64,000 nucleotides of DNA from Alphaproteobacteria bacterium (GCA_965221125.1 CBDCRW010000007.1:480001-544000), one strand, 5' to 3'; shown: positions 15,652-53,227, counted from the stretch's first letter. The notes: generated by a model from the letters alone, not told the origin. A program made the numbers and translations.

Positions 15652-16578
15652 ATGACCGAAGGCCGAGCCGACCTGTCTGCGTGGCGCGAGCCGCAGGCGC
15701 TGATCGAGACCGGCGCGCTCGAGGCGCGCCTCGCAGAGCCCGGACTTCGCATCGTGGACTGCACGACGTGGCTGAAGCCGGCCGAGCCGGGGGACGACGC
15801 GCCTTATCGTGTCGTCCCCGGCCGGGCGGAGTACGACGAGGCACATATCCCCGGCGCGGTCTTTCTCGACATCCAGGGGACGATTTCCGATCCCGACACG
15901 CGCCTCAAGTTCATGGCGCCGGTGCCCGAGCAGTTCGCGGACGCCATGGGCGCGCTCGGCATCGGGGACGACTCCCGTGTCGTGCTGTACTCGGCCGGCA
16001 GCATCATGTGGGCGACACGGGTCTGGTGGATGCTGCGCGCCTTCGGCTTCGAGGGGGCGGCGGTGCTCGACGGCGGCTGGGAGAAGTGGAAGGCGGAGGG
16101 CCGCCCCGTCTCCGCCGAGCCGGGACGCTACCCGCCGGCGCGCTTCACCGCGACGCTGAAGGCCGGCCAGTTCGTCGACAGCGCGTACGTGCGCTCCCGG
16201 CTGGGCGATGGCGGCGCCGTCATGGTGAACGCGCTCGCGCCCGAGTTTCACCTGGGCGAGGGACCGAGCCGCTACGGGCGACCGGGGCGGATTCCGGGGA
16301 GCGTCAACGTGCCCGCCGCCACCCTGCTCGATGCGGCGGCGAACGGCGCCTTCGTGCCGCTGGACGACGCGCGGCGGCTGCACGAGGACGCCGGCGTCAC
16401 GCCGGACCGCCACGTGGTCGCCTACTGCGGCGGCGGCATCTCCGCCACGATCGGCCTGTTCCTCCTGCACCAGCTCGGCTACCGTGACCTCACCCTCTAC
16501 GACGGCTCGATGGGCGACTGGGCGCAGGACTCCGCCCTGCCCATCGAAACCGGCCCGCAAGCGGACGAGACCCCATGA
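15652..16578 (+). CDS. Tandem-rhodanese sulfurtransferase
   Basis: HIPGAVFLD, RVWWML, LDGG, GRIPGS, YCGGG, LYDGSM.DW. Confidence 0.92.
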   Translation: MTEGRADLSAWREPQALIETGALEARLAEPGLRIVDCTTWLKPAEPGDDAPYRVVPGRAEYDEAHIPGAVFLDIQGTISDPDTRLKFMAPVPEQFADAMGALGIGDDSRVVLYSAGSIMWATRVWWMLRAFGFEGAAVLDGGWEKWKAEGRPVSAEPGRYPPARFTATLKAGQFVDSAYVRSRLGDGGAVMVNALAPEFHLGEGPSRYGRPGRIPGSVNVPAATLLDAAANGAFVPLDDARRLHEDAGVTPDRHVVAYCGGGISATIGLFLLHQLGYRDLTLYDGSMGDWAQDSALPIETGPQADETP

Positions 16579-50320: not shown

Positions 50321-51600
50321 GCGCCCATCAGGTCGCGCCACGCCTCGTGCTGGGCGCGCTGGCCGATCTCGCTGGAGCGCGGGCCGAAGAGGACGCCACT
50401 GCCCTCGTCGATCTCGGCGCCGAGGCCGCGGGCGACGAGCACCCAGTCGGTGCCTTGCGCCGTGAGCCCCTCCTGGCAGCGCTCGAACGCCTCCATGTCG
50501 TCGGACTGGATGAAGGAGGCGGCGGCATGCGTCATGTTCACGAAGCGCACGAGGTCGTCGGAGATGCTCGCGGGCGCGCCCATGAGGCGGACCGGCCAGA
50601 CCTCGACCTTGGTGAAGTCCACCGCGACCGGGCGGATCACGCGCACGGAGGTCTGCGCCAGCAGGATGTCGGAGCTTGGGAAGAAGGTCATGCTGTGGCG
50701 GCGGTTCTTCAGGATGTCGGCCGTGCGCTCCTCGCCGTAGCGGGCCACCATGATGGCGCGGTAGTCGTCCCAGTGGCCGCCGGACTGCTCCTTGTCGAAG
50801 AGCGACGCCTCGGAGCTGTGGCGGTTGTTGAGGCCGCGCACGCCGGTCTGGGCGACGATGGCCTCGCCGTTCGGCGCGAAGAACGCGGCATCGCCGCCTT
50901 CGTCGCCGGCGCGGCGCTTGAACTGGCGGCCGTCGGGGCCGACGGTGGACGCGTGGCAGGCGGCGGGGTGGTACATGTCCGCCAGGTTCTCGAGCTGGAG
51001 CTTCCAGTTGCCGCGGTAGTGGTAGCGGTGGCAGCCGGCGCTGAGCGCCACCTCGCCCTCCGGCGAGCGGTCCACCAGCTCGTCGATGCCGCGCCGGGCT
51101 TCGGCCAGCCAGTCGAGCAGGGGCTCGGCGTCCGCGTTGAAGGAGGCGAAGACGAAGCCGCGGTAGCTCTCGGTCCGGGGCAGCCGCGCCATGCCGAACT
51201 GCGGGTCCGCGAGCGGCTCCTCCGGAAAATCCTTGCGCATGGGCACGCCGGCGAGCGCACCGTTCGGCCGGAAGCTCCAGCCGTGATACATGCAGGTGAA
51301 GACCTTGGCGTTGCCGCGCTCGGCGTTGAGCACCTTGGCGCCGCGGTGGCCGCAGCGGTTGAAGAGCACGCAGATGCCGTCGTCCTTGTGGCGGCTCAGC
51401 ACCACCGGCTGGCGCGCGAGGTGGGTGCAGTAGAAGTCGCCGGGGTTCGGCACCAGGCTCTCGTGGCCGACGTAGAGCCAGACCCGGCGAAAAATCTTCT
51501 CCATCTCGATCTCGAAGATCGCCGGGTCGGTGTAGATGGCGCGGTGCACCCGGTCGGGCTGCACCATCTCCCGCAACTCGTCGCGCGTGTAGCCGGCCAT
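50317..51600 (-). CDS. Rieske ring-hydroxylating oxygenase alpha subunit
   Basis: NRCGHRG...CMYHGW Rieske motif; EN..DMYH...CH and DD.EAFE mononuclear Fe ligands. Confidence 0.94.
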   Translation of the reverse strand: MAGYTRDELREMVQPDRVHRAIYTDPAIFEIEMEKIFRRVWLYVGHESLVPNPGDFYCTHLARQPVVLSRHKDDGICVLFNRCGHRGAKVLNAERGNAKVFTCMYHGWSFRPNGALAGVPMRKDFPEEPLADPQFGMARLPRTESYRGFVFASFNADAEPLLDWLAEARRGIDELVDRSPEGEVALSAGCHRYHYRGNWKLQLENLADMYHPAACHASTVGPDGRQFKRRAGDEGGDAAFFAPNGEAIVAQTGVRGLNNRHSSEASLFDKEQSGGHWDDYRAIMVARYGEERTADILKNRRHSMTFFPSSDILLAQTSVRVIRPVAVDFTKVEVWPVRLMGAPASISDDLVRFVNMTHAAASFIQSDDMEAFERCQEGLTAQGTDWVLVARGLGAEIDEGSGVLFGPRSSEIGQRAQHEAWRDLMGA

Positions 51601-51959
51601 CGCTCCCTCCGCCCGGTACGGACGCAGGAGCATCTTAGACCGGGCGTGGCCTTGCCGGGAGTCGCTCGTGGGCGCCGTCGAGCCCGGTGGTGCTGCCGAT
51701 GGCGCGCCAGGGAGACCTGAGCGTCATAGTAGCTGACGACGGTGAAGGTAATGCCGGGGTCGTAATCGCGCGAACACGTGCAGACAATACTGCGCGTGAT
51801 GCTGTCCTTCGAATCGTTGCAGGACCCCCCGGACTGCGCGCAATGGTGTCGACCCGGTGAACGCACGACCCCTCCGGCCCGTGCCTGGCATGACCGCTAG
51901 TCGCCACATGACTGTTTAAAGAAGTCTGATGCTATCGGTGAATACTGTACGAAACAGAC

Positions 51960-51990
51960 TTGACGGCAGCCGACAGAAGTTCGATAGTAT
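51960..51990 (+). promoter_or_regulatory. Putative sigma70 promoter
   Basis: TTGACG (51960-51965) then GATAGTAT (51983-51990). Confidence 0.5.
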
Positions 51991-51993
51991 AGG

Positions 51994-52180
51994 TGCCAGT
52001 ATCTTTCGGGCATCCCGCTGAGTCGGGTCGCCCGCTGAATAGAACAGCCTGATTCCGGGTCACGGTAGCTCCTTGGCCCCAGGTGAATAGGCGGGGAGTT
52101 TCTCTTAAAATTTCCTGAGAGATACTGGCAAGGCCCGACGCCAGGTCGGGCCAATGCCACTATACCGAGCGGGATGGAGG
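51994..52180 (+). ncRNA. Candidate structured cis-regulatory leader RNA, family not recognised
   Basis: 17-bp enclosing helix, internal hairpins, alternative pairing that reaches the SD (see findings). Confidence 0.55.
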
Positions 52181-52187
52181 AACTAAA

Positions 52188-52700
52188 ATGCGAACCCCTA
52201 AAAAAGTCTCAGCGGCCGTCTTGTCAGCAGCGGCCCTCGGCCTTGCCGTGATGGCATGCCAGCCGCAAGGCATGCCTGCCGCGACCGACGCGACGGAAGC
52301 CGAAGTCGAGACCGCGCCCAGTGCTGAAGCCTCGGCTACCGCCGAATCTGCCGGAGTAATGACCGCAGCCGAGATCGCCGATCTATTCGCCGGAAACACC
52401 ATTATTGGTGTTCTGGACGCGTGGAAACTGCGCTGGGCCGAGTTCTTTTCCCCTGACGGAACCTCGAAGGCATTGCTGAGGTTCGAGGGCCAGGCGGATA
52501 TGCGGATTGTCGGGAAATACTACGCAAACGATCAGGACCAATTCTGTACTTTTTACCCGGAGCTGCCCGATCAGAAAGAGTTCTGCCATGGTGTGGTGCC
52601 GTTGGGTGATGGAACGTACCAGCAGGTCTATGCTGACGGCACAAGAGGCGGAATTTACATGCAAATTCTGGAAGGCGAGCAACTCGAAGCGCTCGAATAA
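52188..52700 (+). CDS. Orphan lipoprotein
   Basis: GGAGG RBS, lipobox-like LAVMA-C, A/E/T-rich linker, small domain MTAAEIADLFAGNTI...EFFSPDG with two Cys. Confidence 0.8.
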   Translation: MRTPKKVSAAVLSAAALGLAVMACQPQGMPAATDATEAEVETAPSAEASATAESAGVMTAAEIADLFAGNTIIGVLDAWKLRWAEFFSPDGTSKALLRFEGQADMRIVGKYYANDQDQFCTFYPELPDQKEFCHGVVPLGDGTYQQVYADGTRGGIYMQILEGEQLEALE

Positions 52701-52756
52701 TCCCTCCACAATTCGCTTGCACGAGCGGATTATGGGCGGAGGCGGAGTATTGTGAG

Positions 52757-52790
52757 GGATTGGGCAGGCTCCAAGGAACCTGCCCAATCC
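52757..52790. terminator. 12-bp perfect hairpin downstream of the lipoprotein gene
   Basis: GGATTGGGCAGG-N10-CCTGCCCAATCC; no U-tract. Confidence 0.45.
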
Positions 52791-53227
52791 GACGGAGTCT
52801 AGGCCGGCCATGCGCTGGATTCGCGATCCGAGTTTTCGGACTGCTGAAACCGGCCGATGAGCTGCTACGCCCTGACCGGCGTCGGATGAGGCACGATCGA
52901 ACCCTTGCCGTTCAATGAGGCCGGAGCACGGGTCGAACGGCGAAGAGGACGTGTTGCCGACACCTGTGCTTCCTGACGGACCCGCCGGTCACGGTACGCG
53001 TTCAGCGTTGGCAGAATGTGCAACCGGCGTGACTGTGGGATTGCTGGGATAGCAAGCACGACCGGCGACACTTGGCACCTGCGGCACCCCCATGCTTCGG
53101 TTGTTTATTGGCGTCTGCCCAATGTTCGGGACGGACGGCACCGGGGTGCGCACGCCGGCACGGCGGCAGCTTCGGCGATTGGAGGCGACCCGTTCGATCT
53201 CGGGACCGTGCGCCAGGGGCAACTGGC

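Follow-up and report, generated by a model that had tools for sequence, protein, structure and literature searches.

In a 64,000-nucleotide (nt) stretch of DNA from an Alphaproteobacteria bacterium (GCA_965221125.1 CBDCRW010000007.1:480001-544000), referred to here as the window and numbered from its first letter, a lipoprotein gene is preceded by a structured RNA leader that belongs to a previously undescribed RNA family. Our results leave little doubt that this leader is real, maintained by selection and active in cis. As to its function, we interpret positions 51994-52187, with slightly better than even confidence, as a riboswitch-like element of a new family in which two mutually exclusive folds control translation. 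The data establish the family itself, its helices, the competition between a pseudoknot and a 3' hairpin, a copy-specific complementarity between the ribosome-binding site (RBS) and the 3' strand of the closing helix, and the fixed position of the module between promoter and start codon. An earlier note on the window had singled out this region as a candidate two-state leader ahead of an orphan lipoprotein.

Conserved fold of the leader

A DNA search with positions 51940-52200 as the query provided the starting point for a comparative analysis. Nineteen copies were aligned; MAFFT misplaced the 5' strand of the closing helix P1, RNAalifold run on that alignment missed P1, and the structure was set by hand. 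The resulting covariance model, R1 (158 positions, 40 base pairs), was then used to scan genomes, and two larger alignments of distinct sequences were fitted to it, one comprising 75 sequences from the genus of the window organism and a sister lineage (A3) and one comprising 80 sequences from across phyla (A4). Standard base pairs fill 90.6% of the cells in A3 and 91.4% in A4, versus 74.7% and 69.6% in the respective shuffles. Double changes are found at 30 of the 40 pairs in A3 (443 cells) and at 34 of the 40 in A4 (676 cells), and the covariation scores of 0.478 in A3 (0.178 in shuffles) and 0.599 in A4 (0.193 in shuffles) were reached by none of 500 shuffles in either case, with slid controls scoring 0.06-0.10. 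A model-free mutual information (MI) scan placed the helix pairs of the model at the top of its ranking; within the invariant loops, it revealed no covariation pointing to tertiary pairs. Importantly, G-U cells outnumber A-C cells by 302:48 and 312:47 in the two alignments, which indicates selection acting on the sense-strand RNA. In the comparison with shuffled sequences that the earlier note had proposed, the plus strand of the window copy folds with -90.6 kcal/mol, far better than expected by chance (z = -3.96; 1 of 200 dinucleotide shuffles as good), which is not true of the minus strand (z = -1.81). The leader thus possesses, as riboswitches do, a conserved structured domain backed by covariation. 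A lack of conservation or covariation among homologues had been named in advance as grounds for abandoning the idea, and the alignments show the opposite, with abundant covariation in both A3 and A4.

The outermost element, P1, forms a single contiguous helix of 17 pairs in the window copy, G-U pairs included, as had been described before. Across copies, its length ranges from 16 to 19 bp, and its sequence varies from one copy to the next. The enclosed core is conserved. In P2, the third pair changes from C-G to U-A in 8 sequences of A3 and 27 of A4; P2b covaries at two of its three pairs in A3 and at all three in A4, and P3 at 7 of 8 pairs in A3 and 8 of 8 in A4. Between P2 and P2b lies an internal loop across which two nearly invariant GAAUAG strands face each other. 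These strands had been noticed earlier as TGAATAG motifs at the tips of two hairpins; the motifs are indeed present (52036-52042 and 52084-52090), but the hairpins occur in neither the minimum-free-energy fold nor the comparative one. The loop of P3 has at least three forms among the copies (GUAGCU, UUUGGCC and AGUCAUGA), indicating that its sequence is dispensable. The putative mini-hairpin P1a (CCCG/CGGG) is paired in 82.8% of cells with just one double-change cell and is therefore unproven. An alternative pairing of GCGGG with the first CCCGC segment in place of the second was discarded after inspection of the alignments by eye, because copies with CCUGC/GCAGG retain the first CCCGC.

Two variations on this plan concern the tip of P3. 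In L068, L075, L081, L082, L084, L092, L158, L169 and other copies, GGGG-UAGCU-CCCC is exchanged for GGGUUUGGCCGCCC, and a further sub-group carries GGG-AGUCAUGA-CCC. Judging from these sequences, the tip variants may mark sub-families.

A second layer of structure links the core to the region directly downstream of P1. The pairing of GUCGGGUCG (52022-52030) with CGGCCCGGC (52131-52139) was first proposed by RNAalifold on the initial alignment, and since this helix crosses P1, it constitutes a pseudoknot. In A4, it is paired in 94.7% of cells and contains 18 double-change cells. Shuffles gave 7.2 +/- 2.0, and none of the 500 reached the observed number; at the last pair of the helix, 48 sequences have G-C and 16 have A-U. 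In A3, the pseudoknot is paired in 97.4% of cells, and the MI scan recovers its pair 70:252. The complementarity of GTCGGGTC and GGCCCGAC pointed out in the earlier note corresponds to this conserved pseudoknot, and the 8-bp 3' hairpin reported there, P4, is likewise present. Because both the pseudoknot and P4 require CGGCCCGGC, they are mutually exclusive, and both pairings are under selection.

Table 1. Positions of the promoter, leader elements and downstream gene in the window
Feature	Position	Strand	Remarks
Sigma-70-like promoter, TTGACG-17 nt-GATAGT	51960-51988	+	predicted start ~51994
Leader copy	51994-52160	+	~160-nt structured 5' leader
P1 5' strand (outer clamp and inner part)	51994-52010	+	15/15 modelled P1 pairs with double compensatory changes in both alignments
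Conserved CCCGCUnnGUCGGG; possible mini-hairpin CCCG/CGGG (P1a)	52014-52027	+	sequence conservation
Pseudoknot 5' strand GUCGGGUCG	52022-52030	+	
P2 5' strand CCCGCU	52031-52036	+	pairs with 52090-52095
Internal loop 5' side GAAUAGAACA, near-invariant	52037-52046	+	alignments
P2b 5' strand GCC(UG)	52047-52051	+	pairs with 52080-52084
P3 hairpin, loop GUAGCU in the window copy	52055-52079	+	covariation
Internal loop 3' side GAAUA, then P2 3' strand GGCGGG	52085-52095	+	
Pyrimidine-rich linker	52096-52113	+	anti-Shine-Dalgarno AGUUUCUCU at 52097-52105
P1 3' strand (switching strand)	52114-52130	+	pairs with 51994-52010; copy-specific complementarity to the RBS region
Pseudoknot 3' strand	52131-52139	+	overlaps the 5' arm of P4
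P4 hairpin	52132-52139 with 52145-52152	+	6/8 pairs with double changes (A4)
P1 5' strand mimic including the Shine-Dalgarno sequence	52155-52184	+	UGCCA 52155-52159; GGAGG 52176-52180
Shine-Dalgarno GGAGG	52176-52180	+	
Start codon ATG of the lipoprotein gene	52188	+	
170-aa lipoprotein gene	52188-52700	+	signal peptide, Cys24 after LAVMA; no Pfam family

Position in the transcript and predicted pairing with the ribosome-binding site

All copies follow a common plan, consisting of a TTGAC -35 box, a variable long helix, the conserved core, the return strand, a GCAACGGCCCGGCACC hairpin, a Shine-Dalgarno (SD) sequence and a start codon. In the window copy, both the promoter-like motif and the SD sequence are found where they had previously been placed. 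Among the 154 distinct copies, TTGAC lies 31-35 nt upstream of the model start in ~67-72, compared with 2 in a control window, a spacing from which the transcript is predicted to open with the first P1 pairs. A same-strand open reading frame (ORF) of at least 50 aa follows in 141 of the 154 copies; its start codon lies at a median of 18 nt past the model (within 30 nt in 116 of the 141), 105 of the ORFs have a strong SD sequence, and the module itself stops ahead of the start codon. In four metatranscriptome runs, all from a single study, contigs that match the window at 95-100% identity extend from ~52009/52014 to 52747. They join the leader to the ORF, and none of them reaches either flank. 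The leader is thus located in cis in the 5' untranslated region of the gene, as expected for a riboswitch; a transcription start downstream of ~52130, which would have spoken against the original proposal, is at odds with these contigs, at the level of contigs and of one study. No terminator-like site was found within 51600-52900, and together with the proximity of the start codon and the continuation of the RNA contigs into the ORF, this result argues against the gene of a trans-acting small RNA, which would have its own terminator and be independent of the ORF.

The 5' ends of the contigs at 52014-52016 were considered as a possible start or cleavage site and rejected. They fall on the base that opens the core common to the paralogues, a point at which assembly graphs break, and therefore provide no evidence for either event; moreover, one contig of another copy extends further upstream.

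Our duplex-energy analysis links the leader to the translation start in a copy-specific manner. For each copy, the RBS segment (-22 to +5) was paired with segments of its own leader, and the result was compared with that for the RBS segments of other copies. The duplex with the copy's own linker plus P1 3' strand averages -17.5 kcal/mol, as opposed to -14.7 kcal/mol with the RBS of other copies (n = 140, p = 3e-8), and the same difference amounts to -3.2 kcal/mol in the 106 copies with a strong SD sequence. Part of this effect comes from the 10 nt at the start of the linker (p = 0.006) and part from the inner P1 3' strand (p = 3e-4); neither the P1 5' strand nor the CCCGC segment nor the core gave any such signal. 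In the duplexes, the pyrimidine-rich linker (CUUC, CCUC, CUCC) faces GGAG, and inner P1 3' strands of the CCGUG type face a CACGG directly upstream of it. Being complementary to the linker and the P1 3' strand, the RBS region mimics the P1 5' strand. When the P1 5' strand was blocked in folding, at least four of the six SD bases paired with the linker or P1 3' strand in 55 of 106 copies, compared with 12 of 106 in unconstrained folds, and such pairing appeared in 22% of chimeras that carried the RBS of another copy. For the window copy, the isolated 3' part of the leader folds into a sequestering helix of -40.3 kcal/mol with P4 inside, in which AGUUUCUCU (52097-52105) pairs with GGAGGAACU (52176-52184) and UGGCA (52126-52130) with UGCCA (52155-52159). 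The leader therefore has, like a riboswitch, an expression platform with exclusive pairings that touch the SD sequence.

These results modify the switch that had been envisaged before. Its two-state principle is borne out by the exclusive pairings, and the TGGCA/TGCCA swap belongs to the sequestering helix, but the sequestering partner is the linker plus P1 3' strand rather than CATCCCGCT:AGCGGGATG. The latter complementarity exists in the window, but it is not a conserved SD sequestrator and gives no copy-specific signal (p = 0.47-0.58). As the 12 nt preceding GUCGGG show no complementarity specific to the cognate RBS, a general role of CATCCCGCT:AGCGGGATG in sequestering the SD sequence was rejected, leaving the match as specific to the window copy or due to chance.

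Distribution of the family and the genes it precedes

The middle part of the leader (52014-52096) recurs five more times in the genome of the window organism, in which R1 detects six copies. Of 20 other genomes examined from the genus, 19 contain this middle part according to the DNA search, and R1 likewise finds between 1 and 13 copies in each of 19. None were detected in 23 genomes from nine other genera of the family. A sister family of the order is represented by nine copies in one genome, and copies occur in 5 of 150 other families of the class, with one genome sampled per family. A cross-phylum scan with the exact core pattern, performed on one genome per GTDB species, returned at least 95 stretches, of which 80 are listed as loci; since the pattern required the conserved core, this list is a lower bound and biased towards near-identical cores. 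R1 matches all 80 listed loci, and 80 of its 81 matches span model positions 1-158. In total, 154 distinct copies were collected (75 from the genus and the sister lineage, 80 from metagenome-assembled genomes (MAGs) across lineages).

Judged by their titles, all 80 listed loci originate from MAGs of uncultured bacteria, and they fall into 8 phylum-level groups. Counted by record title, with three lineages checked in the taxonomy and the rest assigned by name, ~38 of them are alphaproteobacterial and 17 gammaproteobacterial (including Pseudomonadales, Arenicellales, Candidatus (Ca.) Azotimanducaceae and Ca. Poriferihabitaceae), followed by Ca. Binatia (6), Acidobacteriota/Bryobacterales (6), Gemmatimonadota (5), Chloroflexota/Dehalococcoidia (4), Limisphaerales of the Verrucomicrobiota (2), Rhodothermales (1) and Nitrospirales (1). 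The cross-phylum copies have a nearly identical core. Several of the records are multi-megabase 'chromosome' records, so that binning error cannot be the cause of all listed loci. Viral contigs contained no match to the core pattern.

Several labels point to a shared habitat. One family name among the listed loci means 'sponge-inhabiting', and a genome note on a sponge mentions it in its abstract; two isolate-label stems turn up in sponge-symbiont papers. Several further label stems probably derive from sponge-microbiome MAG sets. DNA sequencing runs labelled 'sponge metagenome' contain a fraction of 0.22-0.35 of the words of the stretch, a result that was not used as evidence on habitat. A link to sponges is thus a well-motivated lead rather than a result.

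The genes behind the leader share a cell-envelope theme, being mostly those of lipoproteins, exported proteins and lipopolysaccharide (LPS) glycosyltransferases. By simple rules applied to the N-termini of the 141 downstream ORFs, 62 have a lipobox, 31 have a signal- or transmembrane-like segment, and 48 belong to neither group; the lipoboxes frequently read ..AAC followed by a run of glycines. Among 71 genus proteins, a set that includes some wrongly picked ORFs such as those of L016 and L011, 54 lack a Pfam family. The others comprise rhodanese lipoproteins (four), T5orf172 proteins (three) and one each of GIY-YIG, inverse-autotransporter beta domain, subtilase, GT25 and methyltransferase, in addition to matches below the cut-off to TbpB_B_D (three, weak), YccF and a Zn-ribbon. 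For the cross-phylum copies, 57 of 76 N-terminal fragments were analysed after omission of 19 spurious-looking ORFs. Eleven of the 57 have a Pfam family, namely GT25 (three), CsgG, OMP beta-barrel, T5orf172, HTH and TylF (one each) and, below the cut-off, TM2 (two) and a polysaccharide lyase. Two types of cytoplasmic cargo recur across lineages, the family-25 LPS glycosyltransferases and T5orf172/MUG113 proteins (L011, L051, L148, L170, L176; L010, L071, L099, L115).

The lipoprotein of the window had been regarded as an orphan; this view no longer holds, given that 17 of 20 genomes from the genus encode homologues. The five closest of these, at 54-65% identity, are not preceded by a leader, even in a search without filters. 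The window copy itself resides in a 1.3-kb islet (~51700-53050) made up of promoter, leader, lipoprotein gene and a non-coding tail of ~350 nt, set between convergently placed genes of ~70% G+C and having a G+C content of 54-63% itself. This islet looks horizontally acquired. The leaderless homologues and the distinct G+C content of the islet indicate that the leader is modular; the window copy and its gene were probably acquired as one unit.

Individual copies show further rearrangements. L004 (G000:C5:6170-6333) and L003 (G000:C7:88563-88726) are identical, as are 90-140 nt of sequence to either side of them and the ORF that follows; they stem either from a recent duplication or from the double assembly of a single region. 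L026, which comes from another species of the genus, has a 133-nt insert between P2b and P3 (L026:1537-1669) with 22-nt terminal inverted repeats (CTAGTCACCTGA...). By its sequence, this insert resembles a miniature inverted-repeat transposable element (MITE), and the surrounding P1 is intact. Finally, L034 and L053 (G020:C102:12151-12309 and 15711-15866) are two leaders located 3.5 kb apart on the same strand of one genome and may form a small cluster of leader-driven genes.

Proposed mechanism, alternatives and relation to known RNAs

In the mechanism that we propose, the transcript would begin directly with P1, which in the ON fold would enclose P2, the near-invariant GAAUAGAACA/GAAUA internal loop, P2b and P3. 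The core strand GUCGGGUCG would pair with CGGCCCGGC just 3' of P1 to form the pseudoknot, so that the P1 3' strand and the linker would be occupied, P4 blocked and the SD sequence free. In the OFF fold, the pseudoknot would open and P4 form, thereby setting the SD-bearing mimic of the P1 5' strand beside the P1 3' strand and the linker; pairing of the mimic with both would occlude the SD sequence. We consider this use of two folds to control access to the SD sequence moderately probable. We infer that a factor bound to the invariant core stabilises the ON fold and turns translation on rather than off. Most likely, this factor would be a small molecule, possibly a second messenger or else a cue from a host or community, although a trigger of this kind is a tentative proposition to which we give clearly less than even weight.

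Several considerations weigh against this interpretation. P1, with its 16-19 bp, far exceeds a typical switching helix, and blocking its 5' strand costs the leader 12 kcal/mol of stability on average relative to the nested P1 fold, so that a missing ligand may not suffice to bring about the OFF fold. In the full-length window copy, blocking the P1 5' strand did not yield SD:linker pairing, which is seen in the isolated 3' part alone. The energy tests count related copies as independent, so that their p-values overstate the significance; the alignments were fitted to R1, which favours the model's own pairs; and start codons were chosen by rule, with a few choices being wrong. The evidence at the RNA level consists of contigs from one study, in which carry-over of DNA is possible. 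In addition, the cargo genes share no metabolic pathway, and with an envelope theme in place of a pathway, the ligand cannot be guessed from the cargo.

Most of the structural findings are also compatible with a protein or small RNA partner, a stabilising or temperature-responsive leader, or a mobile cassette. The leader could adopt the same two folds as a binding platform for a protein or trans-acting RNA, such as a global regulator of envelope genes, with the invariant loop as the protein site. A cargo that is very diverse yet mostly exported is typical of the regulons of global regulators, and the invariant loops lack covariation indicative of tertiary pairs. However, given the occurrence of the leader in 8 phylum-level groups, any protein partner would need to be either ubiquitous or transferred along with it, and the invariance of the core equals that of ligand-binding aptamers. 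No such partner was seen, no search having been aimed at one. We regard this explanation as unlikely, if the most serious of the alternatives. It is less probable still that nothing specific is sensed and that the leader acts constitutively or in response to temperature, with P1 shielding the transcript from decay at its 5' end and the SD helix melting upon heating or after processing of P1. The predicted transcript start at the first pairs of P1, the great length and stability of this helix and the presence of an SD-occluding helix all fit this idea, but such a role would call for neither a core of 80 nt whose loops hardly vary nor a pseudoknot that covaries, and the leader matches no thermometer family in Rfam.

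An equally improbable scenario is that of a mobile or recombining 5' expression cassette, passed among genes and among genomes of the same habitat to serve newly acquired surface genes, whose fold is a by-product or a translation enhancer. The low-G+C islet around the window copy, the leaderless closest homologues of the lipoprotein and the near-identity of the core across phyla favour mobility. By contrast, the compensatory differences throughout P1, P3 and P4 imply long selection on the fold rather than recent copying, and the RBS co-varies with the P1 3' strand; mobility and sensing are, moreover, compatible with each other. A self-cleaving ribozyme or another processed RNA of the 5' untranslated region would account for the pseudoknot, the invariant internal loops, the many copies per genome, the patchy range (5 of 150 families) and the start of the RNA-library contigs right after the P1 5' strand. 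We nevertheless deem it very improbable, as there is no match to an Rfam ribozyme family and the contig ends fall on the assembly-graph branch at the start of the shared core, which a contig of another copy passes. A repeat acting at the level of DNA (a MITE, an inverton or an attC-like site), with helices that are terminal inverted repeats and nothing else, can be excluded. Inverted repeats of 16-19 bp around a conserved core, present in many copies, do recall such elements, but the arms vary and yet stay complementary, G-U cells are ~6.5 times as frequent as A-C cells, the orientation to promoter and ORF is fixed with the promoter outside the repeat, and viral contigs are free of matches. 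Neither a MITE nor a known Rfam family, the two identities that the earlier note had listed as fatal to its proposal, explains the element.

Returning to a riboswitch-like function, it is tempting to speculate that the leader represents a new riboswitch class that senses a host or community signal and switches on surface lipoproteins, outer-membrane proteins and LPS glycosyltransferases, having spread horizontally with its cargo among at least 8 phylum-level groups of one habitat, by several labels marine sponges. We consider this full scenario doubtful. If correct, it would describe a habitat-specific, cross-phylum RNA sensor that remodels the cell surface of symbionts; any molecule sensed would probably be a signal of life inside a host, and the RNA would offer a handle on the surface display of symbionts. 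Even if nothing is sensed, the leader marks a horizontally shared set of surface genes. New families of cis-regulatory RNAs with this much covariation are now rare, and the present one stands out by its very long clamp helix combined with a pseudoknot/hairpin toggle, its association with surface genes rather than a pathway, and its patchy cross-phylum range with a near-identical core.

The novelty of the leader is supported by Rfam 15 (4227 models, among them every curated riboswitch, ribozyme, thermometer and leader), which gave no match at gathering score in the whole window, in agreement with the earlier suggestion of a novel structured leader. A permissive scan of 51850-52300 (E <= 10) gave four chance-level matches, all far below gathering, the best being CRISPR-DR28 on the P4 hairpin (21.5 bits versus 35 required). 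A full-text literature search, covering listings and abstract openings with subscription journals outside its scope, returned no description of this motif. In mechanistic terms, the closest parallel is provided by translational riboswitches of the add type. In the add adenine riboswitch, the P1 3' strand of the aptamer alternates between P1 and the ribosome-binding site. The leader resembles these elements in its P1-closed conserved core, the complementarity of its P1 3' strand to the SD region, its two exclusive folds and its placement between promoter and start codon. It differs from them in the length of P1 (16-19 bp), the competition between pseudoknot and 3' hairpin in the switch and the control of envelope genes rather than a pathway, and it resembles none of the Rfam riboswitches in sequence or architecture. 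The cyclic di-GMP-I (GEMM-I) riboswitch likewise occurs in several copies per genome before diverse genes, often those of secreted, surface or unknown proteins. The leader is similarly multi-copy and placed ahead of diverse, often surface genes, but it is unmatched by Rfam models at E <= 10 and has other helices and other conserved nucleotides. The thermosensors of Neisseria (fHbp, cssA, lst) are simple hairpins that occlude the SD sequence in leaders of surface lipoprotein and lipooligosaccharide genes. The leader shares SD occlusion and a link to surface lipoprotein or LPS-type genes with these and with the ROSE and fourU elements; unlike them, it has a pseudoknot and an invariant core that spans 80 nt, and it evolves by compensatory changes. 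It also matches no Rfam thermometer.

A further structure in the window lies downstream of the lipoprotein gene. About 60 nt past its stop codon, ATTGGGCAGG and CCTGCCCAAT form a 10-bp hairpin (52759-52788) that is not followed by a U tract, and the RNA-library contigs stop just short of it.

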